A stretch of 64,000 nt of DNA from Candidatus Microgenomates bacterium (GCA_016204995.1 JACQJR010000001.1:369132-433131), one strand, 5' to 3'. Shown: positions 1,291-58,424, counted from the stretch's first letter. Notes: a model not told the origin generated them from the letters alone. A program made the numbers and translations.

Positions 1291-1518
1291 TTATTTAATA
1301 ACCTCCATTATTTTCCAACTAATTGTGCGTGATATCGGCCTAGTTTGTACTAAAATTACCTTATTACCAATTTTGGCATCTATTAAATTTTGAGCGTGAT
1401 AGTTTTTTTGGCGGCGCAGACGCTTACCATATAAAGGATGGGTCACCCACCGCGAGACCTTTACCGTGGCAGCTTTTTCCATTTTATTACTAATTACTAC
1501 TCCTTGAACTTTCTTCAT
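1291..1518 (-). CDS. rpsQ: 30S ribosomal protein S17
   Basis: 75 aa; ...KTAVVKVSRWVTHPLYGK motif; between L29 and L14. Confidence 0.85.
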   Translation of the reverse strand: MKKVQGVVISNKMEKAATVKVSRWVTHPLYGKRLRRQKNYHAQNLIDAKIGNKVILVQTRPISRTISWKIMEVIK

Positions 1519-1727
1519 GATTTTTTGACCTCCAATTGTAAATTACGCAAGACCGTTAAAATCACCGCAATTTGCCGGCGCAAATTACGCCCAGCGTGCA
1601 CATTTTTAATCTTGCCAGTTTTAATATCCAGTTTAGTTTTAATAAACTCCTGTCTCTTTTTAGACAACAAGTCACCCAGTTCTTTAATTGATTTATTTTT
1701 TAATGCTAATAATTCTTGCTTTTTCAT
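1515..1727 (-). CDS. rpmC: 50S ribosomal protein L29
   Basis: 70 aa helical protein MKKQELLALKNKSIKELGDLL...; position between L16 and S17. Confidence 0.8.
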   Translation of the reverse strand: MKKQELLALKNKSIKELGDLLSKKRQEFIKTKLDIKTGKIKNVHAGRNLRRQIAVILTVLRNLQLEVKKS

Positions 1728-1752
1728 ATTTCTAAGATCTAATTTCTAATAT

Positions 1753-2220
1753 CTAAGATCTAACTACTATCTTGCAGGCCACTGGTAATTTGGCAGCTGC
1801 TAGCCTTAAAGCCTCATGAGCTATTTCGCTACTTACTCCCGCTACTTCAAATAACATCCGGCCAGGCTTAATTACTACGACATAACCGGTAATTTCACCT
1901 TTGCCTCCGCCCATCCGGACCCCGGCTGATTTTCCCGTAATTGGCTTATCAGGAAAAACCCTGGTCCAAATTTTACCACCCCGGCGCGTAGAATGAGCAA
2001 TTGCTCGTCTGGCGGCTTCAATTTGGGCGGCGCTGACCCAACCAACTGAAAGAGATTTCAAGCCATATTCACCAAAGGCGATATTTGCTCCTCTGGTAGC
2101 AATACCTTTCATACTTCCCCTAAATTGCTTGCGATATTTTTGTCTTTTTGGCTGTAACACAGCATCTGGAAGGACACCTACGGTTTCCCTCCAACTCCTT
2201 TCCCTTTTTTGTGAATCCAA
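1753..2220 (-). CDS. rplP: 50S ribosomal protein L16 (annotated start probably too far upstream; N-terminal ~20 aa overlap rpsC)
   Basis: ...LQPKRQKYRKQFRGSMKG...GANIAFGEYGLKSL matches L16; 43-nt overlap with S3 ORF suggests a later or non-ATG start. Confidence 0.88.
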   Translation of the reverse strand: MDSQKRERSWRETVGVLPDAVLQPKRQKYRKQFRGSMKGIATRGANIAFGEYGLKSLSVGWVSAAQIEAARRAIAHSTRRGGKIWTRVFPDKPITGKSAGVRMGGGKGEITGYVVVIKPGRMLFEVAGVSSEIAHEALRLAAAKLPVACKIVVRS

Positions 2221-2828
2221 ACTTTTATTCCGACATACCCTCTTTTTAAGAGAGCCGTAGCTTGGGCATAATCAATATCAGCCCGTAAAGTTTGAGTCGG
2301 CACCGACCCAGTGTGAAATTTAGCTTTACGAGCAATCTCTGATCCTTCAATCCGGCCGGCAAATAAAATTTTAATACCCGCCGCTCCAGCTGACATTACT
2401 CTTTCCATCGCCCGAGTGGCCACCCGCCGATGCGGCAAGCGTCGTTCCAGTTCAGTAGCAATTCTATTGGCAACCAGTCTGGCTGATAATTCCGGCTCCC
2501 TTACCTCTTCTATTGCTAAATCTAATTTCATAGGAATATCTGGCAAATCTTTACGGATAAATTCCCGTAGCTCTTCCACCCCTGTTCCGCCTCGGCCAAT
2601 TACCATACCAGGTCTGGTCACTAAAATTCTGATAGTCATGGCCTTGGGTAGCCGTTCAATAATGACGTTTGTAAGCCCAGCGTTTTTTAATTTTTCTGTT
2701 AGTATCTCTCTTAGCCTCAAATCTGCCAAAAGATATTGACTAAAAAGACGCTTATCCGCAAACCATTTCGCCTTCCAATCGGAAAACGTCCCTGTGCGAA
2801 ATGCGACTGGATTAACCTTTTGTCCCAT
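2178..2828 (-). CDS. rpsC: 30S ribosomal protein S3
   Basis: MGQKVNPVAFRTG... KH domain signature; 216 aa. Confidence 0.9.
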   Translation of the reverse strand: MGQKVNPVAFRTGTFSDWKAKWFADKRLFSQYLLADLRLREILTEKLKNAGLTNVIIERLPKAMTIRILVTRPGMVIGRGGTGVEELREFIRKDLPDIPMKLDLAIEEVREPELSARLVANRIATELERRLPHRRVATRAMERVMSAGAAGIKILFAGRIEGSEIARKAKFHTGSVPTQTLRADIDYAQATALLKRGYVGIKVWIHKKGKGVGGKP

Positions 2829-3183
2829 CTTTAACTCCTTTCACTTCTTCTTTAGTCTCAAGTACCACTCTAATATGGCTGGTTCTTTTCAAAATCGGCT
2901 TGACTCTGCCTGATGTACCAGCCCGAAATCTTTTAATTCTCGGCCCTTCGCCAATTTGGATCTCGCGAATTTCTAAACTATCTGGATTTATCCCTTTATT
3001 GTTTTTGGCATTGGCTATCGCCTGTTTGATAACTTTACTTAAAGGAGAAGCCGCCTTTTTATGCACAAATTCCAGTTGGGTAATTAAAAGAGCGGGGTTT
3101 TTGATCTTTTTAGCCAGGTAAGCCACATCCCGTAATTTTTGCGGGCTCATTCTAATATATTTTTGTTCAGCTTTTATAATCAT
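2812..3183 (-). CDS. rplV: 50S ribosomal protein L22
   Basis: 123 aa; position between S19 and S3; L22-like basic protein. Confidence 0.85.
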   Translation of the reverse strand: MIIKAEQKYIRMSPQKLRDVAYLAKKIKNPALLITQLEFVHKKAASPLSKVIKQAIANAKNNKGINPDSLEIREIQIGEGPRIKRFRAGTSGRVKPILKRTSHIRVVLETKEEVKGVKDGTKG

Positions 3184-4609: not shown

Positions 4610-5265
4610 TTATTCTCCTTTTGACCCAAGAAAGTTTTTTTCAAAAGTTCTACCCCCGCTTCAGTGATAACCACTTTAGGATAGATAATTAGCTGATAAG
4701 CATTAATTTGGGAAGCTGGCATCAGTTCTACGCTTGCTATATTCCCCAAACCTCTCGCTAATTTTTCTTCGCCGCCATGCAAAACTAAAACTTTAGTTTT
4801 AGTTAAACCTAATTTATCTAACCATTTTTGCGCGGTTTTAGTTTTTCCCTCCAAGGCCGTTGCTTTAACCACTATTAAGTCTTTACTTGCCAGTTTTTCT
4901 GACAAGGCGACAGTTGTGGCTTGACGAGCCAGCCTCTTAGATAAACTCAACTGACGTTTTAGACCAGTTGGGCCATGAGCAATGCCGCCGCCGACAAAAA
5001 TAGGGGCTTTTTTCATGCCATGTCTGGCCCGGCCAGTTCCCTTTTGACGAAACATTTTAGCCGTGGTGCCAACTATTTCAGCTCTGGTTTTCACCTTATG
5101 GGTACCCTTGTGTTGTCTATCCTGATAAACATAGAAAGCCTGGGCCAGTAATTTATCATTTGGTTTCTGGCCAAATAACTCGTCAGGCAAAGACAATTTG
5201 GCAGCAGTTTTTCCTGTAGTTGGCCCCGATTTAATCGGGGTTGGTTGTATAATTATCTGTTTCAT
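4606..5265 (-). CDS. rplD: 50S ribosomal protein L4 (coding sequence contains a copy of the 17-bp palindrome CCCCGATTTAATCGGGG)
   Basis: 219 aa; L4-like; position between L3 and L23; palindrome at 5224-5240 encodes PIKSG near the N-terminus. Confidence 0.88.
   Translation of the reverse strand: MKQIIIQPTPIKSGPTTGKTAAKLSLPDELFGQKPNDKLLAQAFYVYQDRQHKGTHKVKTRAEIVGTTAKMFRQKGTGRARHGMKKAPIFVGGGIAHGPTGLKRQLSLSKRLARQATTVALSEKLASKDLIVVKATALEGKTKTAQKWLDKLGLTKTKVLVLHGGEEKLARGLGNIASVELMPASQINAYQLIIYPKVVITEAGVELLKKTFLGQKENK
5224..5240. repeat. 17-bp palindrome CCCCGATTTAATCGGGG, copy 1 of 4 (others at 6231-6247, 26712-26727 and 26921-26937 with 1-2 mismatches)
   Basis: a 13-bp core CCGATTTAATCGG would not be expected even once by chance in 64 kb; three copies lie within coding sequence and encode PIKSG or PLKSE. 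Confidence 0.8.
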
Positions 5266-5267
5266 AA

Positions 5268-6050
5268 TTACTCTTCTTTCTTTTCCTCCTTCGGCTCGCC
5301 GGAGTCTGCGGCGGAGGCGGCTTCAGCTTGTTCTGCTTCTACTTCTACTTCCATTGGCGGTAATTCCTCTGGTTTAATATCTTGGCCACGGACTACAAGG
5401 GGAGAAAAATCTTTAATTTGACCAATTTTGGTAATGGTCACCAAACTATCTTTATTGCCTGGTACCGGACCGGATAATAACACTTCACCGTTATCTTTCA
5501 CCGATAAGACTACCAAATTACGGATTGTGACGCGGTCGCTACCCATTCTACCAGCCATTCGCTTACCCTTATAAACCCGGCCAGGAGTGGTAGTTTGGCC
5601 GATGGATCCGGGGGCGCGTTCTCGATCTGATTGGCCGTGGGTGCGAGGACCACCGGCAAAATGATAGCGTCTGACCACACCGGCGAAGCCTTTACCTTTG
5701 GAAATACCAATTACTTTAACTAAATCACCAGGGCTAATCACATCCGAAGCTTTAACTTCATCTCCCACTTTTAAATCTTCGGCAGGCTGTTTGATTTCCC
5801 TTAAAAAGCGAGGAGCAACTTTTTCGCCTTTTGTTGCTCCTTTAAGATGCCCTAAAACTGCCTTTGAGATATTTTTAATTTTTCGCTCTCCTAAGCCTAA
5901 TTGAACTGCCTCATAACCATCTCTATCGTGAGCTTTAATTTGGGTAACCACCAGAGGACCAGCCTGAATTAAAGTAGTCGGGATCCGCCGACCATCTTCA
6001 CTCCAAGCCTGTGACATACCCTTTTTGATTCCTAAAATAGCATTAATCAT
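5268..6050 (-). CDS. rplC: 50S ribosomal protein L3 with acidic C-terminal tail
   Basis: MINAILGIKKGMSQAWSEDGRRIPTTLIQAG... L3 signature; C-terminus EVEAEQAEAASAADSGEPKEEKKEE. Confidence 0.9.
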   Translation of the reverse strand: MINAILGIKKGMSQAWSEDGRRIPTTLIQAGPLVVTQIKAHDRDGYEAVQLGLGERKIKNISKAVLGHLKGATKGEKVAPRFLREIKQPAEDLKVGDEVKASDVISPGDLVKVIGISKGKGFAGVVRRYHFAGGPRTHGQSDRERAPGSIGQTTTPGRVYKGKRMAGRMGSDRVTIRNLVVLSVKDNGEVLLSGPVPGNKDSLVTITKIGQIKDFSPLVVRGQDIKPEELPPMEVEVEAEQAEAASAADSGEPKEEKKEE

Positions 6051-6083
6051 ACTTGTTTGTTTTTCCTGTTAGGGAAAAGAGAT

Positions 6084-6108
6084 GGAGAAAAACCGTAGGT
6101 TTGTCTCC
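6084..6108 (-). promoter_or_regulatory. 10-bp-stem hairpin in the rplC leader
   Basis: GGAGAAAAAC-CGTAG-GTTTGTCTCC, 9 of 10 pairs, about 30 nt upstream of the rplC ATG. Confidence 0.35.
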
Positions 6109-6110
6109 AA

Positions 6111-6137
6111 GCACAAAAATGGGTGCTCGCCGCACCC
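6111..6137 (-). terminator. rho-independent terminator after the crp/fnr-family gene
   Basis: minus strand GGGTGCGGCGAGCACCC followed by ATTTTTGTG. Confidence 0.55.
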
Positions 6138-6252
6138 TAAATGTGGAGTGTCAGACCGAACACACTTTTCAGGAAGTAACGAACTCTTCCATTAACAATA
6201 AGTATATCAAAAAGAAGCTAATATGGCAAGCTCCGATTTAATCGGAGTAAGC

Positions 6253-6909
6253 TCAATATTCGCTCAAGGATTCTTTCGCCAGATCTGCCAGATTATTGAC
6301 TGCGGGCAGATGCTTCTGGAAAGAAATTAAACCTTTCTTTTCCAGCTTTGATAATTCAAGGCTGGTAGTTTCCCGAGTCACTCCTGCCAGACTGGCGATA
6401 TCTTGATGGGTGAGCGGCAACTGAATCACTACCTTATTGCCTTCTTTTTGCCCGAACTTTTCCGCGCAGATTAAAATCATGGAGGCAACTTTAGCGTAAG
6501 CATCTCCAAAGGCCAGATATTCCATTCGCCGCAGAGCAAATCTAAACCGATCATTAACTTGTTGACTGACTATTCTAAATACTGCTGTATTTTGATAAGC
6601 AAAGTCTATGAATTGTTTTTTATCCGCCCGTTTGAGTTCCACAGGCGTTAAAGCTTCGCTGTAATAAAGACTGGGCCCTCCCCCGGCCAAGACCAGAGCG
6701 GCCGGAAAGACATCACCTGCTTGGTAAATTAATAAGGTCAATTCTTTGCCTTCTGCGGAAAGTGAATAAAGCCTCACATAACCTTTTTCCAGTAAATAAA
6801 TACCGGCGGGGGGGTCGCCAGCGCGAAGAATGGTTTCTCCTTTTTTGTAGGTTATTTTTCTGAACTGGCTAAAAAAATTCTCTAGCGCGGAAGGGACTAT
6901 ATTACTCAC
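6253..6909 (-). CDS. Crp/Fnr-family transcriptional regulator (cNMP-binding domain plus C-terminal HTH)
   Basis: 218 aa; beta-roll-like region GETILRAGDPPAGIYLLEKGYVRLY and C-terminal HTH QDIASLAGVTRETTSLELSKLEKKGLI; inserted between rpsJ and rplC. Confidence 0.75.
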   Translation of the reverse strand: MSNIVPSALENFFSQFRKITYKKGETILRAGDPPAGIYLLEKGYVRLYSLSAEGKELTLLIYQAGDVFPAALVLAGGGPSLYYSEALTPVELKRADKKQFIDFAYQNTAVFRIVSQQVNDRFRFALRRMEYLAFGDAYAKVASMILICAEKFGQKEGNKVVIQLPLTHQDIASLAGVTRETTSLELSKLEKKGLISFQKHLPAVNNLADLAKESLSEY

Positions 6910-7131
6910 TTAAAAACATTGTACCACTTGTTAGTTATCTTACACAAATTTGGTAGTCAGTCTTACTGCATCCGCCAAAAATCCGAAATAAAATTTTAGT
7001 AAGTATGGGGAAAAGATTGTTAGACTTAATCGGTAGCTTGATTGCCTTCTTTAATGCGCCGACTGGTTAAAAATTAATTGGCTATGGAACGCCGCGTGGT
7101 ACCGCAAGTGTCGCGAGGACCTTAAATTAGG

Positions 7132-7440
7132 CTACATTTTGATCTCTATTGATACTCCGGCCGGCAAATCTAAATTGGATAACGAATCAATGGTACGGGA
7201 AGTAGGATTCATAATATCTACAATCCTTTTATGGGTTAAAATTTCAAAATGATCTTGGGCGTCTTTATCCACATGAGGCGAAGCATTAACAGTGATTAAT
7301 TTGCGACGAGTTGGTAAAGGGGTGGGACCGGACACACTAGCACCCGTGGAAAGAGCCGCCTCCACGATTTTGGCGGCTGCCTCATCAATGACCCGATGGT
7401 CAAAGGATTTAAGTTTAACTCTAATTCTTGACGCTGGCAT
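7132..7440 (-). CDS. rpsJ: 30S ribosomal protein S10
   Basis: 102 aa; ...IRVKLKSFDHRVIDEAAAKIVEAA... S10 signature. Confidence 0.9.
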   Translation of the reverse strand: MPASRIRVKLKSFDHRVIDEAAAKIVEAALSTGASVSGPTPLPTRRKLITVNASPHVDKDAQDHFEILTHKRIVDIMNPTSRTIDSLSNLDLPAGVSIEIKM

Positions 7441-7493
7441 ATTTACTCCAATTCAAAGTGCAAAATGCAAAATTAAAAATTCCGATAGTAGAA

Positions 7494-7522
7494 ATTATAA
7501 CCTAGAAATTAAGTGAAGTCAA
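7494..7522 (-). promoter_or_regulatory. sigma-70-like promoter for rpsJ (TTGACT-N17-TATAAT)
   Basis: the reverse complement of 7494-7522 reads TTGACTTCACTTAATTTCTAGGTTATAAT, about 55 nt upstream of the rpsJ ATG and just after the tuf stop. Confidence 0.55.
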
Positions 7523-7524
7523 AG

Positions 7525-8727
7525 TTAAGCAGTTACACTGGAGATGACGCCGGCGCCGACGGTTCTGCCGCCCTCACGAATGGCAAAACGCAGACCTTCT
7601 TCTAAGGCTACCGGCTGAATCAATTTCACTTTTAATTTGGCGTTATCCCCAGGCATGACCATTTCTACGCCTTCCGGCAAAACAACATCTCCGGTCACAT
7701 CAGTGGTTCTAATATAGAATTGGGGTTTGTAACCTGGGAAAAATGGGGTATGACGACCACCCTCCTCTTTGGTTAAAATGTAAGCCTCTGCTTCAAATTC
7801 TGTATGAGGAGTAACGCTGCCTGGTTTAGCCAACACCTGACCACGTTCTACATCATCTTTTTCAATACCGCGAATCAAAATCCCGACGTTGTCTCCAGCT
7901 TGACCTTCATCAAGAGTTTTTCTAAACATTTCAACACCAGTCACGACAGTTTTCTTGGTATCTTTAGTTAAACCGACAATTTCCACCTCTTCTCCCACCT
8001 TAATTTTGCCGCGCTCTACCCGGCCAGTCACTACTGTACCACGGCCTTTGATAGCAAAAACGTCTTCTACCGGCATCAAAAATGGTTTATCTATCTCCCG
8101 CTCGGGCGTTGGAATAAACTCATCCACTGCCTTCATCAGTTCCAAAATTTGTTTCTCTGCTTCCGAGTCGCCCTCGTAGGCTTTCAAAGCTGAACCACGA
8201 ATGATCGGAGTATCTTTACCTGGATATTGATATTTGTTCAAAAGTTCCCGAACTTCTTCTTCCACTAAGTCTACTAAACCCGGATCATCAACCATATCAA
8301 CTTTGTTCAAGAAAACTACTAAAGCTGGGACGTTGACTTGACGAGCCAGTAAGACGTGCTCGCGGGTTTGGGGCATCGGTCCATCAGCAGCGGAAACTAC
8401 TAAAATAGCTCCATCCATTTGAGCGGCGCCGGTGATCATGTTTTTGACGTAGTCAGCGTGTCCCGGAGCATCAATATGAGCATAATGACGTTTATCCGTT
8501 TCATACTCCATGTGGGTAATGTTGATGGTCACTCCGCGTTGTTTTTCTTCCGGGGCATTATCAATATCATCAAAAGCAGCCGATTTAGTAGGATTACCAG
8601 GTTGTTTGGCTAAAACGCGGGTAATAGCTGCAGTTAAAGTAGTTTTACCATGATCCACGTGACCAATAGTACCTACATTAATGTGAGGTTTAGTTCTCTC
8701 GTATTTCTTTTTTGCTTCTTCTGCCAT
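7525..8727 (-). CDS. tuf: elongation factor Tu
   Basis: 400 aa; [27 protein letters not shown] motifs. Confidence 0.97.
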
Positions 8728-8756
8728 ATTAAAAAGGGCCTCTGCCCTCTATATCA

Positions 8757-8790
8757 AGTATTATATGAAATATGAGCCTAATCTGTCAAT
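8757..8790 (-). promoter_or_regulatory. candidate tuf promoter (TTGACA-N18-TATAAT) immediately after the fusA stop
   Basis: the reverse complement reads TTGACAGATTAGGCTCATATTTCATATAAT, followed by a GGGCAGAGGCCC hairpin in the leader. Confidence 0.5.
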
Positions 8791-8792
8791 AG

Positions 8793-10958
8793 TTAACTTT
8801 TCTTAGCGCTAATTATTTTCTCGGCAATGTTATTGGGCACTTCTTCATAATGAGATGGTTCAACATAGGGATTGGCCCGGCCTTGAGTCAGCGAACGCAA
8901 AGTAGTAGTGTAGCCGGAAATTTCAGCTAGTGGCACTCGAGCCAGCACAATGGTAGAATTACCCCGTTTTTCCGTCCCTAAAATTTGGGCCCGGCGGGAA
9001 GATAAATCACCAATCACATCACCCATAAATTCTTCCGGCGTAGTCACTTCTACTTTCATAATTGGTTCCAAGAGTACTAAACCGGCTTTGCGGGCCGCAT
9101 CCTGTACTGCCATAGAGCCGGCAATTTTAAAAGCAATTTCCGAAGAGTCAACATCATGATAAGTTCCGTCAAAGACCGTCACTGACAAATCAACTACCGG
9201 GTAGCCTGCTAAAATGCCATTAGATAAAGCTTCAACCACTCCTTTTTCAATTGGCGGAATAAATTCATTAGGAATGGCACCGCCTTTGATTTTATTAATA
9301 AACTCAAAACCTTCTCCCCGGCCTTTAGGTTCCACTTTTAAGAAACAATGACCATATTGTCCATGGCCGCCGGTTTGGCGAATGTATTTACCTTCGCCTT
9401 CAGCCAAGCCCTTGATAGTCTCCTTATAAGCCACTTCCGGAGAACCAGTGGTCGCCTCCACCCCAAATTCCCGGCGCATCCGATCCACTAGAATTTCCAA
9501 ATGCAGCTCACCCATACCGGAAATAATCGTCTGGCCAGTTTCCGGATTGGAACGAATTCTAAAAGTGGGGTCTTCCTCTGACAATTTGCCCAAGGCTTCA
9601 CCTAATTTTTCCTGGTCGCTTCTGGTTTTAGGCTCAATAGCCAAGGAAATAACTGGATCGGGGAAAGCAATTGATTCTAAAACTAAAGGATAACTGCTAT
9701 CTGCCACTGTATCCCCAGTAACGGTTTCCCGTAAACCGACTGCCGCGACAATTTCTCCCGAGTAGGCTTCGCTGACCAACTCCCTTTGATCGGCATGCAT
9801 CAACACTAAGCGGCTAGTTCTTTCCCGTCTGTTTTTAGTGGTGTTGTAAGTCTCCTGGCCGGCTTTTAAAACACCGGAATAAATTCTTAACCATACTAAC
9901 CTACCCACATGAGGATCGGTTTGCACTTTAAAGGCTAAGGCTGATAAAGGCTCATCATTACCCGGTTTTCTTTCTTCGGTATTACCATTCCATTGACCCG
10001 TCACCGGCGGCAAATCAATCGGCGAAGGCAAATATTCTACGACCGCATCCAGTAATGGCTGAACTCCTTTATTGCGCAAAGATGAACCGCAAAAGGTCGG
10101 AAAGAGTTCGGATTTAATGGTGGCCCGGCGCAAAGCAGACTTTAACTCGTGAGTATCCGGCTCTACTCCCCCCACATACTTTTCCAAAATGCCCTGGTCG
10201 GTTTCGGCAATGGCCTCAATAGTTTGAGCCCTGTATTTTTCCATTTGCGCGACTAATTCTTCCGGCACCTCGGTCTCTGTATAAACTGCGCCTGTATCAA
10301 CTTGTCCTGAGACAGCCGAAGGATCACCTTCCCAAATATAGGCTTTGCGATCTAAAACTGACACAATGCCCCGGAAACTTTGTTCACTGCCAATGGGAAA
10401 GGTTAAAACTACAGGTTTTGCGCCTAATCTCTCGCGAACGGCAGCTAACGTCCCATCAAAGTTAGCTCCTAATTTATCCATTTTATTGACAAAAATAATT
10501 CTTGGGACATGATATTTATCAGCCTGGCGCCAGACTGTTTCAGTTTGCGATTGAACCATTTCTTCCGCATCTAACACCGTAATGCCGCCGTCCAAAACGC
10601 GTAAAGATCGCTCCACTTCAGCCGTAAAATCCACATGGCCCGGAGTATCAATGATGTTAATCCGGTAATTACCATGCTCAACGGAAGAGTCTTGTTTTAA
10701 TTCCCAAAAAGCGGTGATGGCTGCCGACACAATGGTGATACCCCGTTCCCGTTCCTGGGCCATCCAATCGGTAACAGTGGTACCCTCATCAACCGATCCC
10801 AACTTATAAGTCCGGCCGGTGTAAAAAAGAATTCTTTCGGTAGTGGTAGTTTTACCCGCGTCAATATGAGCAATAATACCGATGTTGCGGATTTTATCCA
10901 AAGCCACTTCGCGATTTTTGGTGACTACTTGTGATAGTGATGCTTTTTGCCCGGCCAT
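8793..10958 (-). CDS. fusA: elongation factor G
   Basis: 721 aa; AHIDAGKTTTTERIL, DTPGHVDF G-domain motifs; upstream of tuf. Confidence 0.97.
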   Translation of the reverse strand: MAGQKASLSQVVTKNREVALDKIRNIGIIAHIDAGKTTTTERILFYTGRTYKLGSVDEGTTVTDWMAQERERGITIVSAAITAFWELKQDSSVEHGNYRINIIDTPGHVDFTAEVERSLRVLDGGITVLDAEEMVQSQTETVWRQADKYHVPRIIFVNKMDKLGANFDGTLAAVRERLGAKPVVLTFPIGSEQSFRGIVSVLDRKAYIWEGDPSAVSGQVDTGAVYTETEVPEELVAQMEKYRAQTIEAIAETDQGILEKYVGGVEPDTHELKSALRRATIKSELFPTFCGSSLRNKGVQPLLDAVVEYLPSPIDLPPVTGQWNGNTEERKPGNDEPLSALAFKVQTDPHVGRLVWLRIYSGVLKAGQETYNTTKNRRERTSRLVLMHADQRELVSEAYSGEIVAAVGLRETVTGDTVADSSYPLVLESIAFPDPVISLAIEPKTRSDQEKLGEALGKLSEEDPTFRIRSNPETGQTIISGMGELHLEILVDRMRREFGVEATTGSPEVAYKETIKGLAEGEGKYIRQTGGHGQYGHCFLKVEPKGRGEGFEFINKIKGGAIPNEFIPPIEKGVVEALSNGILAGYPVVDLSVTVFDGTYHDVDSSEIAFKIAGSMAVQDAARKAGLVLLEPIMKVEVTTPEEFMGDVIGDLSSRRAQILGTEKRGNSTIVLARVPLAEISGYTTTLRSLTQGRANPYVEPSHYEEVPNNIAEKIISAKKS

Positions 10959-10971
10959 AAATCAATTGTAC

Positions 10972-10998
10972 ACAAAAAAGAAGCGTTATTGTCGCTTC
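10972..10998 (-). terminator. hairpin plus U-run between the unknown gene and fusA
   Basis: minus strand GAAGCGACAATAACGCTTC followed by TTTTTTGTG, ending 13 nt before the fusA ATG. Confidence 0.45.
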
Positions 10999-11075
10999 CG
11001 TAGCTAATTTTAACCTAAAATTTGAATTTAAGCAACCTATGAATAAATTATAATAATTAAGAGGCGTACTTTTGC

Positions 11076-11558
11076 TTAAGGATTTTGGTTCTCTTTATCG
11101 TTTTCTTTGTTGCCCGTCTGTCTCACTTCATTTTCATTATATCCATGTTCTTTACCCCACTTAATCCAATCAGCCGCCATCGCTTTCAAACGCCCTCTAT
11201 GTTCTGGAAGAATAGGATCAACTCCAGTAATGGTGTATAAAGCCTCAAACCAGTGATCCGGCTTTTGCGCAAGTTTCTCTAAAATTAAAGGAACAATTGG
11301 CATTCCCATCTCAATAATTTGCTGGTAGGCTGGATGTTCCACCATCACGCTAATATCCATGTGATGTGGTCTTTCTCGCACCCAGAGATCAGCCAGTTGA
11401 TTAAATTTATCTCTAGTAGCCCTACCTTCAATTACCTCATCAGTAAATTTTGTCAAAGCCTGTCTATCTTCGTTTGATATGTATGGAATCCATAGGTATT
11501 GTTCAAGTTGACTTGCTCTTTCTTCACCATTGAAGTTTGAACCTTGTTCTTTTTTCAT
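11076..11558 (-). CDS. hypothetical protein inserted between rpsG and fusA
   Basis: 160 aa ORF with no recognisable family; host-like composition; own candidate promoter upstream and hairpin plus T-run downstream. Confidence 0.5.
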   Translation of the reverse strand: MKKEQGSNFNGEERASQLEQYLWIPYISNEDRQALTKFTDEVIEGRATRDKFNQLADLWVRERPHHMDISVMVEHPAYQQIIEMGMPIVPLILEKLAQKPDHWFEALYTITGVDPILPEHRGRLKAMAADWIKWGKEHGYNENEVRQTGNKENDKENQNP

Positions 11559-11618
11559 TTGGAGTTAGTTTACCACCCTAAACTCGCTTGTCAAGCAATA
11601 TCACCAAGGAGTGATCAT

Positions 11619-12098
11619 TTACCATTTAAAGTGGGCAAAGGCCCGATTGGCTTCGGCCACGCGTTCCATATCTTTTTTCTTACCGATGGCTCCACCCAAC
11701 CCGCGACTGGCATCAATAATTTCTGCCGCTAGTTTCTCGGCAAAGGTGTGATAATCTTTATTGGAACGAGCGCGGGCGGCCATAATTAGCCAGCGGATGG
11801 CCAGAGATTCGCGCCTGGGACCCCGAACTTGCATGGGTACTTGATAAGCAGCGCCTCCCACCCGGCGAGGCCTAACCTCCATCAAAGGCTTAACTTGGTC
11901 AATTGCCGACAGAAAAATCGGTAAAGCTTCTTCGCCTGAATCTTGGCCAATTTTTTCCAAAGCCTCGTAAACTTCCGCTTGGGCCACTGATTTTTTACCA
12001 TCCAGCATGACTCCGTTAATAAATTTGGTCAATAGAACGTTATTAAAAACCGGATCGGGAGCAACAATTCTAGTAGGGGTTTGTCCGCGTCTGGCCAT
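11619..12098 (-). CDS. rpsG: 30S ribosomal protein S7
   Basis: MARRGQTPTRIVAPDPVFNNVLLTKFINGVMLDGKKSVAQ S7 signature. Confidence 0.92.
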   Translation of the reverse strand: MARRGQTPTRIVAPDPVFNNVLLTKFINGVMLDGKKSVAQAEVYEALEKIGQDSGEEALPIFLSAIDQVKPLMEVRPRRVGGAAYQVPMQVRGPRRESLAIRWLIMAARARSNKDYHTFAEKLAAEIIDASRGLGGAIGKKKDMERVAEANRAFAHFKW

Positions 12099-12103
12099 AA
12101 AAA

Positions 12104-12559
12104 TTAAGCTGCGGCTGGGGCCGGTGCGGCCGGTCGGGGCGCAACCCCTCCTCCTTCGCGACGTGTGCCATAGCGAGACCGGCCGGTTTTGCGGCCGACC
12201 ACGCCGGTAGTATCATATTTGCCGCGCACCACATGATATTTAACGCCTGGCAAATCTTTGACCCGACCACCCCGAACCATGACGTTTGAATGTTCTGCCA
12301 GTTCATGTCCTTCACCAGGAATATAGGCGGTAATTTCCTGCTTATTAGACAATCTAATTCTGGCCACTTTGCGCAAAGCCGAGTTAGGTTTTCTGGGAGT
12401 CATCGTGCGGACAGATAGCACCACCCCTCGTTTAAAAGGACTGGCTAGCTCACTAAATTTGCGGGTTCTGGTATTGAACCAACGGCGCAATGACGCGCTG
12501 CGGAATTTACTCACAGATTTCTTTCTCCCATGTTTGACTAATTGATTAATTGTTGGCAT
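12104..12559 (-). CDS. rpsL: 30S ribosomal protein S12 with Ala/Pro-rich C-terminal extension (start taken at internal Met of MPTINQL)
   Basis: [14 protein letters not shown]...[14 protein letters not shown]12 signature; the ORF-track N-terminal 15 aa ([15 protein letters not shown]) look non-native; C-terminus [13 protein letters not shown]. Confidence 0.9.
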
Positions 12560-12672
12560 AGCTCTCCCTTCGGTCGAGAATAATACCAATATTACAAATT
12601 TCAAATTTCAAATGTTTTATCATTGGTATTTATTGGTATTTATTTGATATTGGTACTTATTTTACCATGTTT

Positions 12673-15600
12673 TCAGCTTTGGGGCAATGGGGCTTGGGGT
12701 AAATGCGCCCTTTCAGCGGTAACAGGAATCAGCCTACCGATAATCACATTTTCTTTTAAGCCCACCAGTTTATCTTCCTTACCCAAAAGGGCCGCTTCGG
12801 TCAAGATGTTGGTAGTTTCCTGGAACGAAGCTGCCGACAGCCAAGACTCGGTGTAAAGCGAAGCTTTAGTCACCCCTAAAATGACCACTTGGGCCGTAGC
12901 CGGTTCTCCACCGGCGGCCAAGACCCGTTCATTTTCCTCCACAAAAGTGACTCGGGAAACGAGCTCTCTAGGCAGTAAAGTAGTATCGCCGGAATTAATA
13001 ATCTGCACCTTATCGCTCATCTTGCGCAAAATTACCTCAAAATGCTTGTCATTAATCGGAATACCTTGCGACTCATAAACTGCCTGAATTTCAAAAATTA
13101 AATATTCTTGGGCAGAGCGCAAACCACGAATAGCCAACACCTGTTTAATATCCAAGAGTCCTACCGCCAGTTGCTTGCCGGCCGCGATTAAATCGCCGTC
13201 TTCTACAGCCAGCTGAATAGTTTTAGGCACCACATATTCCCGTTCCTCCGGTGGTTTCACATCGGTGCTTTTAACCCGGACTTTCCAGGAATCCTCCGAC
13301 TCAACTACCTCTACCAAACCTGCAATCTCTGCTAGAGGCGAAATAATCTTGGGCATTCTGGCTTCAAACAATTCCTCTACCCGAGGTAAGCCTTGAGTGA
13401 CGTCCAGACCGACGATACCGCCCGAATGCTTCACCCGCATAGTAAGTTGCGTACCCGGTTCGCCGATGGATTGAGCGGCAATGACGCCCACCGGTACTCC
13501 CAATTCCACTCGCTTTTTGGTAGCCATATCCCAACCATAGCAGGCGGCGCAAAGTCCATAGCGAGAGGCACAAGCCAAAGGTGAACGAATTAACACTTCA
13601 GGAATTTCCATCTCAAAAATTTTCTGGGTAATTTCTTCACTCATTTCCTCACCGGCCCGAACGATGGTTTCCTTACCAACTATGACATCGCTGGCGGCTG
13701 TTCTACCCAGTAAACGGGCACTAAAGGCCCGAGTTCGTTCAGATCTTTTGACTAACACCCCTTCGGCAGTACCACAATCCTCAATTCTGATAATCACATC
13801 ATGAGCCACATCTACCAGGCGGCGTGTCAAATAACCGGCATCGGCTGTTTTTAAGGCTTGGTCTGTTAAACCTTTGCGCGAACCGCGGGCGGTAGAAACG
13901 TATTCAAAAATAGACAAACCTTCCTTAAAGTTGGATTTGGTCGGCAATTCCACCACCCGGCCCATCGGATCTACCACCAAACCGCGCATGGCGGCAATTT
14001 GCTTAATCTGCTCCCGAGAAGCCCGACCGACTCCGGCGTCAATAATTAGCTTGATAGGATTGTCCGCCTCAAATTTTTCCCAGGTCCGGTCAGCCAACTC
14101 TTCGGTAGTTTCAATCCAGACTTCCTGGGCCAGTCTCTTTTTCTCTTCTTCGGTAATAAGGCCGCTCCTGAAATTTTCTTCAATCTCTGCGACCTGCCCG
14201 TTAGCAGTTTCTATCCGCTCATTTTTCCCTTCTAAGGTGACGGCATCAGCCACGGAGAAAGACAAGCCGGACACAGTCCCGGCAGAAAAACCAATGTTTT
14301 TAATGGTGTCAATCATTTCTACTACTTCTGCTTTGGAACCGCGGGCAAAAGCGGTATTAAAAATGCCTTTGAGTCTTGCGGCCGTCACCGATTCGTTGAC
14401 ATAATTCATCCAGGAAGGCAACAGCTCATTGAAAAGTAAGCGGCCGACAGTGGTGGTTAATTTTTCTCCCTCATGGAAAATCTCTATTTCCTGCCTCAAA
14501 CCCAGTTGTCCCCGTTGGTATAAATAAATGACAGTTTCGGCATCGCCAGTAATTTCCCGCTTGGAAAGACGAGGATCGGTGGAAGTTAAGTAGTAAACTC
14601 CCAAAGTCATTTCCCGACTAGCCGGGATCGTAATCGGGGCGCCGTCAGAGGGTTTGAGTAAATTGTGTTCCGGCAACATCAGATCGCGAGCCTCTGCTTT
14701 GGCCCGTTCTGACAAAGGCACGTGGACGGCCATTTGATCACCGTCAAAGTCAGCGTTGTAGCCGGCGCAGACGCAGGGATGCAGCCGGATAGCATTACCT
14801 TCAATTAACACCGGATAAAAAGCCTGGATACCCAGTTTGTGCAAAGTGGGAGCGCGGTTAAGTAAAACCGGATGATCAGAAGTAATTCCCTCTAAAATAT
14901 CAAACACTTCCGGCACCCGTTTTTCCACCATGCTCTTGGCGCTTTTAACATTGGGGGCAATGCCTTGAGCAATCATTTCCCGCAGCACAAATGGCTTAAA
15001 CAACTCCAAAGCCATTTCTTTAGGCAAACCGCATTGGTTAAGAGATAATTCCGGACCGACTACAATGACAGACCTGCCCGAATAATCTACTCTTTTACCC
15101 AATAAATTCTGTCTAAATCTGCCCTGCTTACCGCGCAGCATATCAGATAGCGATCTTAAAGGTTGGCGCGTCCTACCCCGGCGCATCACCTGTCTTTGGC
15201 TGGCATCAATTAAAGAGTCTACTGCCTCTTGCAACATTCGTTTTTCATTCCTCAAAATAATTTCTGGCGCGCCCAATTCTAATAAATGACGCAATCGATT
15301 ATTGCGATTGATGATGCGGCGATATAAATCGTTTAAGTCGCTCGTCGCAAAACGGCCGCCGGATAGCTGCACCATCGGCCGCAGATCTGGCGGTAAAACC
15401 GGCAAAATTTTACAAATCAGCCAAGCAGGCGACACACCGGATTTTCTCATTCCCTCTATTAATCTCAATCTTTGGGCAAGCTTAATCGCCCGGCTGCCGC
15501 TGACTTCGCCGATTTGTTTACGGACCGCAGCAGCTGTCTCCTCCAAATTCAATTCGGAAAGAAGGCTATTAATCGCTTCGGCGCCCATTTTAGCCACAAA

Positions 15601-20483: not shown

Positions 20484-22220
20484 TTACCAACTGCCGCCGC
20501 CTCCACCACCAAAACCGCCGCCGGAAAAACCTCCGCCTCCGGCGAAGCCCGATCTGGGACTAGCCATAATGGCCGAAGACATAGAACTGGAAAAATTACT
20601 AATATTGGAACTAAAGATGACCGGATTAAAGCGGCCTGTACCATAATACCAGGCCGGTTGAGTAGGTTTGATGCCCATCTCTTCAAAAACTTTGGCAAAT
20701 TTTTCAGTTAAGCCAAAAACAATGGCATAAGGCAATACTTCGTTAAAAATATTTTCCCTCTCCATAAATTGCTGTTTATATTTTTCGGCCTTTTCAATAA
20801 ACATTCTAAAGCCAAGTACTCTTCTAAATAATTGATAACCCGCCGTGGTTCTTCTAGGGAAAGAGCGGGAGAAAATCATTAGGATAATCCCTATAAAAAA
20901 TATACCCAGGATAAAGCCGGGCCAATACCCGCCTTCTTCAAAGGCGGCGGCGCTGGGAGCAAGAATCACGCCTAAAAAGAAAAGTATGGATCCAAAACCA
21001 GTGTATTTATTTCTTAATTTTTCGGGATTGGTGGGAAAATATTTTTTATCTATCATATCTTTGTATAAAGCATCCTTAACCAAAACCAAATCTTTATAAA
21101 ATTTATTTTGTAAGTCGGATAATAAAATTTCCTCTTTTTCTTTAAATAAACTCTGTAAAAGTATTTTTTCGTAATTAACCAAGCCGGTAATTTCCTTTTT
21201 AGTCCGAGTCAAAGTGTAATCTCCGCGACTTAACAATCCTTTTTTCGGCTCTTCCGTAATGGTTAAAAATCCACGGGCCGCCAAATCCACAATGGTAGCC
21301 GTTACATCCAGACTATCTGCCTTCTCATCCACTAGAGTACCGACTTGAGCCGGTTTTAATTTTTCCGGCGGAAAATATTCCGCGACCAGTGGCAAATTTT
21401 TACCCACTTCCCGGCCATGGTAAAACCAATAGGCAAAAATTGTCCCGCCGCCCAACAGAAAAAATACCCCGGCCACAATCAACATTGTTAAAACTGCTTT
21501 ACCCTGCTCTGGATTATAATTTTGGGAAGAGATTTTAGGACTTTGGGTTAAGGTAGTAATTGGTATGCTTCCCTTTTTATATCCGACTACAACTGTTAAT
21601 CCCCAACTAGGCAGCAAGGGGTTGCGCGCCTGAAAAGAAGCTTGGCTAGCAGATAACAAATTACTGCGACACTTGTTGTTTACCCCAAATCGTCCTTCAA
21701 AACAGGTAATACCGGTAATGGCATTTTGCGGTAAAGTGACTTGAGCCGAAGCCTTATTAATAAAAACCGGCCACTGATCACCAGTCACATCCCAATACAA
21801 CTCATCATGATCGCTAAAACTTCTTAAAGCACCCCTGACCAAATATTGAATTTGATAACTAACTTTACCAGAAACCGTTTGGCGGGGATCACCAATTTTA
21901 ATATGTAAAAAGTCGCCACTCGTAGAAGACTCATAAATCGCCGGAACGTTATTTTGTAAAACACCTAACAGAAGAATATCTATGTAATAATTCTGGCTAT
22001 TACCCAGTTGGTAAATATAAGGAATATCGCGGAAGATACCGTGTTTATCAAGCTCGCCAAAATCCGCATCAATCGTTTCTAAAACTTGTACTTTGCCATC
22101 AGATTGAATATTGATCTCGCTTTTAAAATTATCAATCACCCAATTTTCCGCAGCCTGTGCCTGCCGAACAAAAAGAAGAAAAAATAAGCTAGTAAATAAT
22201 AGAACTAAATGCTTTATCAC
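20484..22220 (-). CDS. DUF2207-family membrane protein with C-terminal Gly-rich tail (usual partner of LemA)
   Basis: 578 aa; signal peptide, extracytoplasmic domain, TM helices, C-terminus [18 protein letters not shown]; adjacent to lemA as in the conserved LemA-DUF2207 gene pair. Confidence 0.7.
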   Translation of the reverse strand: MIKHLVLLFTSLFFLLFVRQAQAAENWVIDNFKSEINIQSDGKVQVLETIDADFGELDKHGIFRDIPYIYQLGNSQNYYIDILLLGVLQNNVPAIYESSTSGDFLHIKIGDPRQTVSGKVSYQIQYLVRGALRSFSDHDELYWDVTGDQWPVFINKASAQVTLPQNAITGITCFEGRFGVNNKCRSNLLSASQASFQARNPLLPSWGLTVVVGYKKGSIPITTLTQSPKISSQNYNPEQGKAVLTMLIVAGVFFLLGGGTIFAYWFYHGREVGKNLPLVAEYFPPEKLKPAQVGTLVDEKADSLDVTATIVDLAARGFLTITEEPKKGLLSRGDYTLTRTKKEITGLVNYEKILLQSLFKEKEEILLSDLQNKFYKDLVLVKDALYKDMIDKKYFPTNPEKLRNKYTGFGSILFFLGVILAPSAAAFEEGGYWPGFILGIFFIGIILMIFSRSFPRRTTAGYQLFRRVLGFRMFIEKAEKYKQQFMERENIFNEVLPYAIVFGLTEKFAKVFEEMGIKPTQPAWYYGTGRFNPVIFSSNISNFSSSMSSAIMASPRSGFAGGGGFSGGGFGGGGGGSW

Positions 22221-55970: not shown

Positions 55971-56956
55971 ATAACGATTTCGCAAATTATAAGCGTAGTA
56001 AACATATCGAAACTGGCCCAGGCGAACAAGCACAAGTTGATTGGGCAAGTTTTGGTAAAATTGAAATTAACGGTAAAGTAAAAAAAGAGAGATTGTCCTG
56101 TTTTGTCTACGTTTTAAGTTATAGTCGGGCTTTATATATTGAATTTACTATTAAACAAAACCTTCAGACTTTAGAAGAATGTCATCTCCATGCCTTTGAA
56201 GAATTGGGTATACCTAAAACTATTGTTTATGACAATATGAAGACCGTAGTTTTAAAAAGAGAAAAATTACCTAAAGATAAATCAATAATACATTACAATC
56301 CAGCATTTGCTGATTTTGCCCAACACTATGATTTCCATCTATGGGCTTGTACGCCTCATTTACCTCGGGCTAAGGGAAAAGTAGAAAGAACAATTAGGTA
56401 TATAAGAAGTAATTTTATGCAAGGTATTAAAGTCAGACGGCAAGGGCTATCTCTGGAAGAGTTAAATAAAAAGGCATTAACGTGGTTAGAAAATGAAGCT
56501 AATGTCAGAATACATAAAGCTACTAATGAACGGCCACTGGATAGTTGGAAACGAGAAAAACCCTATCTACGATTTCCCAAAGATTATCATCCCTATACTA
56601 CCTCACCTTTCATAGTAAGATACAGCACTAAAGACGGAATGGTGCAATATAAATCAAACTTTTACTCCATACCAACAAAATTTTCTAGGAAAAAGCTCTT
56701 GGTAAGAGAAATAAACAAAAATGGCATGATTTTTCTAGAAATTTATCATGAAGATCAACTTATCACTGCTCATGGATTAAATAGAGATCGTGGACAATGG
56801 ATTACACAAGACCAACACCTTTTATCTGAAAACAAAACATCGCCTAAAAGAAAAATCAAGAAAAATTTATTTCACAAAGCAAAAATACAAAAAATAAAAG
56901 ATTTTACCAGAGGATTTGAGTACTACGAAAGGATAATTTCTACCTATAATGTCTAA
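55971..56956 (+). pseudogene. istA: IS21 transposase IstA, N-terminally truncated
   Basis: the open frame from 55971 reads ...KHIETGPGEQAQVDWASFGKIEINGKVKKERLSCFVYVLSYSRALY... (IS21 DDE region) with no start codon or HTH domain; the ORF track starts at a TTG at 56093. Confidence 0.75.
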
Positions 56957-57758
56957 GTCAAAATCTAATCAGTCTTATATTATTCCCGATGGTTTAAAGC
57001 AAAAGGAAAAAATAGATGTTGGGTTAAAGTTATTGAAGCTAGAAGGAATGAGATTTTCTTTTGATGCCTTAGCGCGGGACTATATTAAACAACAAAAAAC
57101 ATCTTATGATTTTTTGGAAAGCTTAACAGAGATTGAGTGTTCATGGAAACATGATAACAGAGTTGAATATTTAATTAAAAATGCCCGCTTTCCATTTATT
57201 AGAAGTATTTATGATTTTGATTTTGATTTTCAACCTAATATTAATAAACAACAAATAATGGAACTTGCTTCCTGCAGGTTTATTGAGCGGGGAGAAAATA
57301 TTATTTTTCTAGGTAAATCTGGAGTAGGTAAAACTCATTTAATTATTTCCTTGGGTATGGAGGCTATTGATAAATTATATTCTGTGCGTTATTTGCACAT
57401 CGGTGATCTAATTGAATCAATAAATAGAACTACAAATAACGGTGACGATTTATATAAACTTCTCAAGAATTTGCTACGCTTCAGATTACTTATTCTTGAC
57501 GAAATGAATCCTTATAACGTAAGTCCAGAATCAAGTAAGTTTTTATTCAAATTATTATGGGAACGTCACGAACAAAGACGTTCTACAATTTTTGCTTCTA
57601 ATCACGATCTTAAAGAGTGGGTTGTATTATTCGGGAGCAAAAATCGAGCCGAGGCAGTGATGGACCGTATTTTAACCCGCCAGATGTATGAAATTATTAC
57701 TATCGAAGGACCTTCTCACCGAGCCGAAAGAGGAGAAAATAGCCTAAAACTGCTTTAA
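56949..57758 (+). CDS. istB: IS21 helper ATPase IstB
   Basis: 269 aa; Walker A FLGKSGVGKTHL, Walker B LLILDEM; overlaps the istA stop. Confidence 0.8.
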   Translation: MSKSKSNQSYIIPDGLKQKEKIDVGLKLLKLEGMRFSFDALARDYIKQQKTSYDFLESLTEIECSWKHDNRVEYLIKNARFPFIRSIYDFDFDFQPNINKQQIMELASCRFIERGENIIFLGKSGVGKTHLIISLGMEAIDKLYSVRYLHIGDLIESINRTTNNGDDLYKLLKNLLRFRLLILDEMNPYNVSPESSKFLFKLLWERHEQRRSTIFASNHDLKEWVVLFGSKNRAEAVMDRILTRQMYEIITIEGPSHRAERGENSLKLL

Positions 57759-57767
57759 AGAAGTAAA

Positions 57768-58424
57768 TTATTCTAAAGATTTACCGCTAATTTCCTTTGC
57801 TTTCTGTCTGAAAAATGAACGCAACTCCTCCAAAGTTAATAGCTTAATCATCTCGGGCAGAAAATCAAAAGTTTCTACTTTTAACAAATCAGCTCCTACA
57901 ACAAAAGGATCCATTTTAACCTTAAATTTTACTCGTACTCCTTCTAATAAATCCCAAATAGTGAATTCTTTTAATAAGAAATAAAGATCAGCAAAATCTT
58001 TGACTTCAGTCCTTTGTTCTATTGCTAATAGTTTATTAATGGATATATCTAACAGTGAATCAATAGCCAGATTATCTACTATCTTACTCTTCTCTACTCG
58101 CTTATAAGGATAAAAGGCAAAATCAACTTTGACAGTCCGTTTGTCTGAAAAAATTAGGTTAAATATCTGGGTATTTTCTACTGCTAGATAATCAACTATA
58201 AAATGTAATTTTTTCTCCCAGAGAGTCATCTTGTCTAAGATAACTTGCGGATCAAATTTCTCTTGGCTGAAAAAATCAAGATCAATAGACTTACGATGTT
58301 GCAGATAATATAAACTTAAAGCTGTCCCGCCTGTAAAATAAAAAATGGAAGAAAGAAAGCGGTCTTTTCTAACTTCATCTAGTAACAATTCCTGCTCGGG
58401 GGTAATAATTCTTACTTGCCCCAT
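57768..58424 (-). CDS. AbiEii/AbiGii-family nucleotidyltransferase toxin (type IV toxin-antitoxin)
   Basis: 218 aa; FYFTGGTALSLYYLQHRKSIDLDFF matches the AbiEii NTase motif hGGTAL...R.S.DLD. Confidence 0.7.
   Translation of the reverse strand: MGQVRIITPEQELLLDEVRKDRFLSSIFYFTGGTALSLYYLQHRKSIDLDFFSQEKFDPQVILDKMTLWEKKLHFIVDYLAVENTQIFNLIFSDKRTVKVDFAFYPYKRVEKSKIVDNLAIDSLLDISINKLLAIEQRTEVKDFADLYFLLKEFTIWDLLEGVRVKFKVKMDPFVVGADLLKVETFDFLPEMIKLLTLEELRSFFRQKAKEISGKSLE

Follow-up and report, generated by a model that had tools for sequence, protein, structure and literature searches.

We analyzed a window of 64,000 nucleotides from a Candidatus Microgenomates bacterium (GCA_016204995.1 JACQJR010000001.1:369132-433131), in which a gene for a Crp/Fnr-family regulator of 218 amino acids (aa), referred to here as crp (6909-6253, minus strand, GTG start), lies between rpsJ and rplC, the genes for the ribosomal proteins S10 and L3. 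The evidence presented below indicates that crp is probably a self-regulated passenger in a permissive gap, and that this gap exists because the operon from rplC onward has its own promoter and leader RNA. As a change in gene order, the insertion of crp is unremarkable, and nothing points to a special connection with ribosome control; the rplC leader, together with the insertion hotspot that it borders, is more interesting than the insertion itself.

The rpsJ-rplC junction in related lineages

All genes and elements of the rpsJ-rplC region reported here are on the minus strand. rpsJ (7440-7132, 102 aa; Pfam Ribosomal_S10, 4.6e-32) is followed by crp, also recognized by Pfam, and by rplC (6050-5268, 260 aa; Pfam Ribosomal_L3), downstream of which come rplD, rplW, rplB, rpsS and rplV. 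The presence of a Crp/Fnr-type gene at this place, as proposed in the initial annotation, was confirmed: the gene is intact, on the same strand as its neighbors, and both its domains and the gene order could be verified. The order rpsJ-crp-rplC recurs in three Logan assemblies obtained independently for this organism, which excludes mis-assembly. The resulting gap between rpsJ and rplC, of 1081 nt, is unusual in general, but not within the organism's own clade. As a baseline for gap size, we used an L3-alignment scan of metagenomes with universal peptide patterns, which yielded at least 80 loci, mostly from distant bacteria, and which served otherwise only as the source of one related locus (L052). 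Among the matches listed, the gap is about 270 nt or less in most of the loci with rpsJ.

We then compared the junction across the nearest lineages as judged by L3 (54-69% identity), with the following results. First, the window has crp at the junction, and one relative (L045) has a dksA-like gene together with crp. Second, other relatives carry unrelated cargo, namely, a DUF5652 gene (L047/48 and L049), an unknown gene of 247 codons (orf247, L132), a methyltransferase gene with a 76-aa open reading frame (ORF; L133), a 2.7-kb set consisting of a DUF5678 gene, a 140-aa ORF and a MutS-like gene (L134), and an unknown gene of 331 codons (orf331, L137). Third, one lineage (L135/136) lacks rpsJ at this place and has divergent NUDIX and methyltransferase genes, followed by rplC. 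Fourth, in L050, L052 and L138 nothing separates rpsJ from rplC. Thus, of 12 related lineages, eight have cargo or a break at the junction, and the gene sets involved are of seven kinds. Where DUF5652 occupies the junction (CAYTZB, CAYIKF), the Crp orthologue is encoded at another place in the genome (L006, L004), and tblastn searches of the rpsJ-crp spacer of the window for remnants of the cargo of other lineages (DUF5652, DksA-like and others) found none.

Judged from these gene orders, the rpsJ-rplC junction is an insertion hotspot in this clade. This bears on the proposal that crp itself splits the S10 operon, which did not hold: the split is clade-wide, and it is present without cargo in L050, L052 and L138. 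The split is most likely older than crp, which would fill a gap that was already there.

A conserved leader RNA upstream of rplC

The spacer between crp and rplC (213 nt) folds better than 200 of 200 shuffled sequences (z = -3.8), and its elements can be read in order as follows. A hairpin without U-run, CTCCGAT-TAA-ATCGGAG (6247-6231), directly follows the crp stop codon and abuts the -35 element of a predicted rplC promoter (6229-6201), which consists of TTGCCA, a 17-nt spacer and a TG-extended TATACT (TGnTATACT). A structured leader of about 80 nt (6192-6110) comes next. In its first helix, P1, GGAAG (6190-6186) pairs with CTTCC (6176-6172) around a loop with GTTCG; this is followed by a middle hairpin (6166-6147) and by P3, a GC-rich hairpin GGGTGC-GGCGA-GCACCC (6137-6121) with six pairs, five of them G-C. 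The sequence ATTTTTGTGC (6120-6111) follows the GC hairpin, with the U-run ATTTTTGTG at 6120-6112, so that stem-loop and U-run together have the form of an intrinsic terminator. A second hairpin, GGAGACAAACC-TAC-GGTTTTTCTCC (6108-6084), with ten pairs and one internal mismatch, sits between the leader terminator and the ribosome-binding site of rplC. Both hairpins that had been noted originally (6111-6137 and 6084-6108) are therefore real. The number of terminator-like matches around the locus is not above chance (11 versus 10.0 expected in 5000-13000), and the GC hairpin gains its significance from conservation in relatives, not from such a match alone.

Promoter, leader and GC hairpin are kept upstream of rplC in all nearest L3 relatives for which upstream sequence is available, whether the unit lies behind crp, DUF5652, a methyltransferase gene, a MutS-like gene, a divergent NUDIX gene or rpsJ itself. 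The promoter of the relatives has a TTGCNN -35 element (CTTGC in most), a spacer of 17-18 nt and a TGnTATA(A/C)T element, from which 8-13 nt lead to (A/G)UGGAGGU. The latter is the 5' strand of P1 in the clade, which pairs with ACCUUCAU around a loop with UUCG; a variable middle part, the GC-rich hairpin and U5-7-GUG come after it, and the rplC start codon follows the U-run. In most relatives the GC hairpin reads GGGCGC-UUCG-GCGCCC, versus GGGUGC-GGCGA-GCACCC in the window. The second hairpin (6108-6084) could not be recognized in the relatives, whose sequence varies in this segment. These observations modify the suggestion that crp has its own terminator. The hairpin and its U-run exist, and at 6137-6111 they would be the first terminator encountered by transcription coming from rpsJ or crp; but they lie past a conserved promoter, within an rplC leader that relatives devoid of crp also have. 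As the promoter-leader unit is present whatever gene is upstream, the hairpin is not crp's own terminator.

A covariance model of the leader (A3, R1), built from nine sequences and searched against 450 kb of loci plus the window, matches only upstream of rplC. It gives a single hit in the window, the leader, at 57.1 bits. The untrained loci L135/L136 were recovered upstream of rplC (26.8 bits, E 7e-4), and L052 (18.6 bits, E 0.03) and L138 were recovered weakly, directly upstream of rplC as well. In an alignment of 11 sequences, standard pairs make up 94% of the pair cells and five of the 14 pairs change on both sides, with a covariation score reached by none of 500 shuffles. Compensatory changes include P1 of the window (GGAAG/CUUCC versus the consensus GGAGG/CCUUC) and a terminator pair in which C-G becomes U-A. 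No match at Rfam gathering score was found in the whole window or in 12 related loci, and in 5900-7700 Rfam 15 gave at E <= 10 only two chance matches to long non-coding RNAs (E ~9). The rplC leader of about 80 nt is thus apparently undescribed, and it is structured and covaries, as would be expected for a ribosomal-protein leader.

How the leader may work is suggested by its position. In L133, L135, L052 and L138, only 6-16 nt separate the end of the U-run from the rplC ATG, and this short stretch often lacks a Shine-Dalgarno sequence; rplC is therefore necessarily transcribed through the hairpin. In the clade, the S10 cluster is broken between rpsJ and rplC, and the genes from rplC onward would have their own sigma-70-type promoter and structured leader. 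Whether polymerase starts at the rplC promoter or arrives by read-through from upstream genes, it would have to pass the terminator-like hairpin to express rplC, which makes this hairpin most likely an attenuator that sets the output of the rplC operon. By analogy with the S10 leader of Escherichia coli, it is tempting to speculate that the attenuator responds to a ribosomal protein encoded in the operon, L4 or L3, although we hold this tentatively and would not rate it as the likelier outcome; no convincing antiterminator pairing could be found in the leader by eye. In L137 the GC hairpin is kept and the U-run has decayed. The earlier idea of autogenous control of the L4 type through the hairpins upstream of rplC is accordingly retained in part: rplC does have its own leader, which is a reasonable candidate for such control, but control by the Crp-like protein, proposed at the same time, is not borne out (see next section).

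Two other readings of the unit were weighed. The first is that it represents a free-standing small RNA (sRNA) gene that neighbors rplC, rather than a cis-acting leader. The anatomy would fit, namely, a strong extended -10 promoter, a structured transcript of about 80 nt and a GC hairpin with U-run, and its 5' end, GGAGGUGA, is complementary to the anti-Shine-Dalgarno sequence at the 3' end of 16S rRNA. However, the unit invariably adjoins rplC on its upstream side and shares its orientation, and in several genomes the rplC ATG is found 6-16 nt past the U-run, which leaves no space for another promoter; we therefore regard an independent sRNA gene as improbable. If the unit is an attenuator, a terminated product of about 80 nt could arise as a by-product of attenuation.

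The second reading is attenuation by a leader peptide, in which translation of a 5' ORF of 7-19 codons opens P1 and thereby modulates termination. A possible upstream ORF of seven codons is present in the window (MEEFVTS, 6192-6169), and others are MEVRFRPS in L047, MEVKIRPL in L050 and MEVLVRPAYALRLRRAGPS in L045, each ending at a stop codon. In 13 of 13 loci read, an ATG or GTG occurs 8-13 nt past the -10 element, and the short ORF ends at or near the 3' strand of P1; moreover, a 33-nt insertion in L045 preserves the frame, and third positions change synonymously in Val, Arg and Pro codons. Yet an open stretch of about seven codons is expected by chance ~70% of the time, and the A or G at position 1 is explained equally well by an A-U or G-U pair in P1. 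A 1-nt deletion in L132 puts the ORF out of frame but leaves the nucleotide motif intact, and the peptide sequence is unconserved in the window, L052, L135 and L137. With such evidence, attenuation by a leader peptide has little probability.

A variant of the leader, and candidate leaders of other kinds, were encountered at further loci. The Woesebacteria-type variant (L137 2375-2500; L138 590-708) has the same promoter, a P1 formed by UGGUGGUU and AACCACA, a conserved middle block GCUAGUCUUCGAAGGAUGCUUC and the GC hairpin, with a U-run that is present in L138 and lost in L137. In the rpsJ-rplC spacers of several metagenome bacteria unrelated to one another (L057, L059, L061, L079, L081 and L086) there is a different hairpin, GGAGAUGAUGC...UGACAGUCUCC, kink-turn-like and some 25-45 nt upstream of rplC, for which no Rfam match at gathering score was obtained and which may be another undescribed rplC leader. 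Among more distant loci, L053, L072 and L106 have a GC hairpin with U7-8 about 10-40 nt from the rplC start, within rpsJ-rplC spacers of 120-170 nt, and terminators or attenuators between rpsJ and rplC may not be limited to Microgenomates.

The Crp/Fnr-family regulator and its predicted operators

The regulator has a cNMP-binding-type beta-barrel sensor domain at its N-terminus (PF00027, residues 19-104; 60.1 bits versus a cut-off of 27.5, 2.1e-16) and a Crp-type winged helix-turn-helix domain at its C-terminus (residues 140-209), the latter detected with PF13545 (HTH_Crp_2; 53.2 bits, 3e-14) and with PF00325 (Crp; 32.4 bits, 7.4e-08). This is the same two-domain architecture as in the NtcA/CRP branch, and its solved relatives are, by closeness, NtcA (E 5e-20), followed by mycobacterial Crp and E. 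coli CAP. The protein nevertheless stays below the cut-offs of the NtcA equivalog TIGR03697 (73.4 bits versus 244.95), the CRP equivalog NCBIfam PRK11753 (58.2 versus 266) and NCBIfam Fnr (39.6 versus 228). Members of the FNR subgroup ligate a [4Fe-4S] center with three N-terminal cysteines and one central cysteine; the 218-aa protein has a single cysteine, in ILICAEKFG, and none among its N-terminal 30 residues, which leaves no room for an iron-sulfur sensor of the FNR type. The NtcA segment SDRFYHAVA aligns to PSLYYSEA in the window protein (PxxYYLEA in the orthogroup consensus), without the arginine of NtcA that presumably contacts its 2-oxoglutarate ligand. The Arg-Ser/Thr pair that contacts the cyclic phosphate in CRP was not spotted by eye in the consensus PxxYYLEAMT. 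An RET..S motif is invariant across the orthogroup.

Upstream of the orthologues, the palindrome TGTAA-N6-TTACA is found as an exact copy in eight loci, versus 0.0 in shuffled sequences (300 nt upstream counted), and the variants TGTTA/TAACA and TGTGA/TCACA also occur. The consensus of CRP is TGTGA-N6-TCACA and that of NtcA is GTA-N8-TAC, so that the operator proposed here would have the same geometry, in keeping with the 16-bp inverted repeats (TGTNA-N6-TNACA) of the Crp/Fnr superfamily. A search allowing two mismatches revealed a pair of boxes, distal tgcAGTAA-N6-TTACA and proximal TGTAAGATTGCTTACA, whose centers are 23 nt apart in many loci; L045 carries both. We then built a position weight matrix (PWM) from 36 sites of other genomes, with the window and L045 left out, in which the training sites score at least 9.8. 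The best match in the 64 kb, at 17.6, is the proximal operator-like box TGTAAGATAACTAACA of crp (6944-6929), a score for which 0.035 sites are expected per shuffled window. A degenerate distal copy, AGTAAGACTGACTACC (6967-6952), scores 6.9 and has its center 23 nt upstream of that of the proximal box.

As read from the sequence, the putative crp promoter (6947-6918) consists of TTGTGT (6947-6942), an 18-nt spacer and TGgTACAAT, with the -10 element at 6923-6918. Because the GTG start codon is 8 nt past this -10 element, the crp mRNA would be leaderless or nearly so, without a Shine-Dalgarno sequence. The proximal box overlaps the -35 element and the spacer, which suggests self-repression. Altogether, the promoter and paired operators suggest that crp is autoregulated, presumably by autorepression. 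That crp also forms a unit with rpsJ, as initially thought, is plausible in that no structured or terminator element was detectable in the rpsJ-crp spacer (z = +0.5), but crp has its own predicted promoter too.

Further PWM matches, at 58401-58416 (14.3, the second best) and 21955-21970 (10.7), were rejected, as they fall within ORFs and occur at chance frequency; at 14.3 or more, 0.47 sites are expected per shuffled window. The first of these overlaps, with its chance-level score, the 5' end of a second 218-aa ORF in the region 56949-58424, where this ORF adjoins, on the opposite strand, a 269-aa ORF that is IstB-type ATPase-like by eye only.

The orthogroup of the regulator comprises 425 matches, nearly all of 200-250 aa and 45-57% identical, and those of its members that carry names belong to Microgenomates lineages, including Curtiss-, Levy-, Davies- and Roizmanbacteria. 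We inspected the surroundings of orthologues (43-53% identical) in 41 species-representative genomes, and in all 41 the region within 6 kb of the orthologue is free of rpsJ, rplC, tuf and the other ribosomal genes queried. The usual neighbors are genes for a divergent DsbA-like thioredoxin (CPFC motif), a ZIP-type transporter, an acylphosphatase and the peptidyl-tRNA hydrolase Pth, a neighborhood that is not present elsewhere in the 64-kb window. In 14 of the 41 genomes (L001-L041) the DsbA-like gene, about 0.3-1 kb upstream, is divergent from the regulator and shares the operator-bearing spacer with it, and the ZIP-type transporter and acylphosphatase genes adjoin the DsbA-like gene at orthologue loci. 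These genes are the best candidates for the normal targets of the regulator.

The closest homologue (P0002, 57% identity, GCA_016204955.1), encoded at L045, is the only other one that precedes rplC, in the order rpsJ, a DksA/TraR-type gene on the opposite strand, crp and rplC. The two Crp proteins are sisters in a neighbor-joining (NJ) tree, but the two organisms are not sisters in a rough NJ tree of concatenated L3-L4-L23-L2, whose deep nodes, at ~60-66% identity, are unresolved. Since the Crp proteins group together and the ribosomal proteins do not, the crp-rplC adjacency would be old or recurrent, and it is patchy. A recent insertion, as had been assumed, is not supported: a second genome has the same adjacency although the two Crp proteins share only 57% identity, and the G+C content of crp (0.44) matches that of the window (0.43). 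A foreign origin by composition was likewise rejected, as G+C content and G+C at third codon positions match those of the neighboring genes.

These data also bear on whether position reflects function, that is, whether crp sits at this junction in order to keep its level in line with ribosome synthesis or to exert direct control over the rplC operon. The same orientation of crp and the lack of a detectable terminator from rpsJ to crp are compatible with such coupling, as are the recurrence of the adjacency in a genome with a 57% identical Crp and the sister relationship of both Crp proteins linked to ribosomal operons. Against it, the operator is missing where direct control would require it: no Crp-type palindrome was found with the PWM upstream of rplC or rpsJ, the best scores being 0.5 in the crp-rplC spacer and 2.0 in the tuf-rpsJ spacer (-3.0 in the fusA-tuf spacer), versus 17.6 at crp, which speaks against the proposed control of rplC by the Crp-like protein. 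In addition, the orthologue is remote from ribosomal genes in the 41 genomes, the relatives have other cargo, and the rplC promoter and leader are alike with or without crp. Functional coupling of either form is thus unlikely to account for the arrangement.

We therefore favor the reading in which crp is a self-regulated passenger. Lying between two transcription signals, the junction would tolerate insertions, and different lineages would have placed different genes in the gap; in the window, the cargo would be a native Crp/Fnr-family regulator, belonging to a Microgenomates-wide orthogroup, with its own promoter and operators, and possibly also co-transcribed with rpsJ. Several points weigh against this reading. 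First, promoters, start sites and termination or attenuation are predictions from sequence, and the regulon was scanned within this 64-kb window only. Second, the 11 aligned sequences are few, related and aligned to the model itself, which biases the covariation counts towards the structure, and the leader of the window is the most divergent member (57 bits). Third, the decay of the U-run in L137 implies that termination may not be the conserved function. Fourth, the crp-rplC adjacency occurs in two lineages that are not sisters in the rough tree, and a selective reason for the position is possible.

Neighboring features, known systems and implications

Upstream of rpsJ, the cluster comprises rpsG (12098-11619), an unannotated ORF of 160 aa (11558-11076), fusA (10958-8793) and tuf (8727-7525). 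In comparison with the bacterial str-S10-spc cluster, the one described here is broken at two junctions, by crp between rpsJ and rplC and by the 160-aa ORF between rpsG and fusA. The latter ORF, which has no Pfam or NCBIfam match, is preceded by a promoter-like site, TTGACA-16-TAAACT (11594-11567). L047 and L048 also have an unannotated ORF directly upstream of fusA, without tblastn similarity to the 160-aa ORF. At L045, tuf and rpsJ are separated by four small ORFs (144, 97, 122 and 100 aa; 1358-3103), none of them matched in Pfam, from which it follows that the tuf-rpsJ junction is also permissive in the clade. Promoter-like sites precede tuf (TTGACA-18-TATAAT, 12/12 consensus, 8760-8789, minus strand) and rpsJ (TTGACT-17-TATAAT, 11/12 consensus, 7522-7494). 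As such sites precede tuf, rpsJ and rplC individually, the str/S10 cluster would seem to be transcribed as several short units, and not as long operons. The L3 protein ends in an acidic low-complexity tail of ~50 residues (5268-5420, minus strand; …EELPPMEVEVEAEQAEAASAADSGEPKEEKKEE), which seems to be a feature of the clade, given that L3 of the relatives has 246-292 aa.

The logic proposed for the rplC leader resembles that of the S10 leader of E. coli, which interacts with L4, mediates L4- and NusA-dependent attenuation and likewise places a structured leader and a terminator hairpin before the rplC, rplD, rplW and rplB genes (PMC3616713). However, the leader of E. coli, which folds into five or six hairpins and is found only in Gammaproteobacteria, is located upstream of rpsJ (PMC3616713), whereas the leader of the window precedes rplC, downstream of rpsJ, has about 80 nt with two conserved helices, and gave no Rfam match. 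In a survey of ribosomal-protein leaders, an L4 leader upstream of rplC is listed only for Archaeoglobi (Eckert and Weinberg 2020; PMC7247131). This candidate is also directly upstream of rplC-rplD-rplW-rplB, but it stems from archaea, and neither its sequence nor its structure could be matched to the leader of the window. Our literature searches on Crp regulators of the Candidate Phyla Radiation (CPR) and on interruptions of the S10 operon gave nothing relevant.

A broader picture can be entertained, albeit as a speculation that we hold even more loosely than a response of the leader to L4 or L3. In Microgenomates, and possibly in more of the CPR, the classical single S10 operon may have given way to an rplC-led operon under a new leader that serves as an autogenous sensor of L4, L3 or the translation apparatus, with the gap upstream being filled recurrently and, in this case, with crp, as a global regulator, dosed along with ribosome synthesis through read-through from rpsJ. 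The 5' helix of the leader resembles a Shine-Dalgarno/anti-Shine-Dalgarno duplex (GGAGGU/ACCUCY), and the terminator hairpin abuts an rplC start codon that often has no Shine-Dalgarno sequence.

Gene regulation in the uncultivated CPR, or Patescibacteria, is almost unknown, and this locus gives two concrete regulatory elements. The rplC leader would be among very few ribosomal-protein leaders that have been suggested for the L3/L4 operon outside Gammaproteobacteria, others including the Archaeoglobi candidate, and the predicted crp operator permits regulon prediction across Microgenomates genomes. Finally, the supposedly universal adjacency of rpsJ and rplC is a hotspot of gene turnover in one clade, which matters where the synteny of ribosomal-protein genes is used in binning and phylogenomics.

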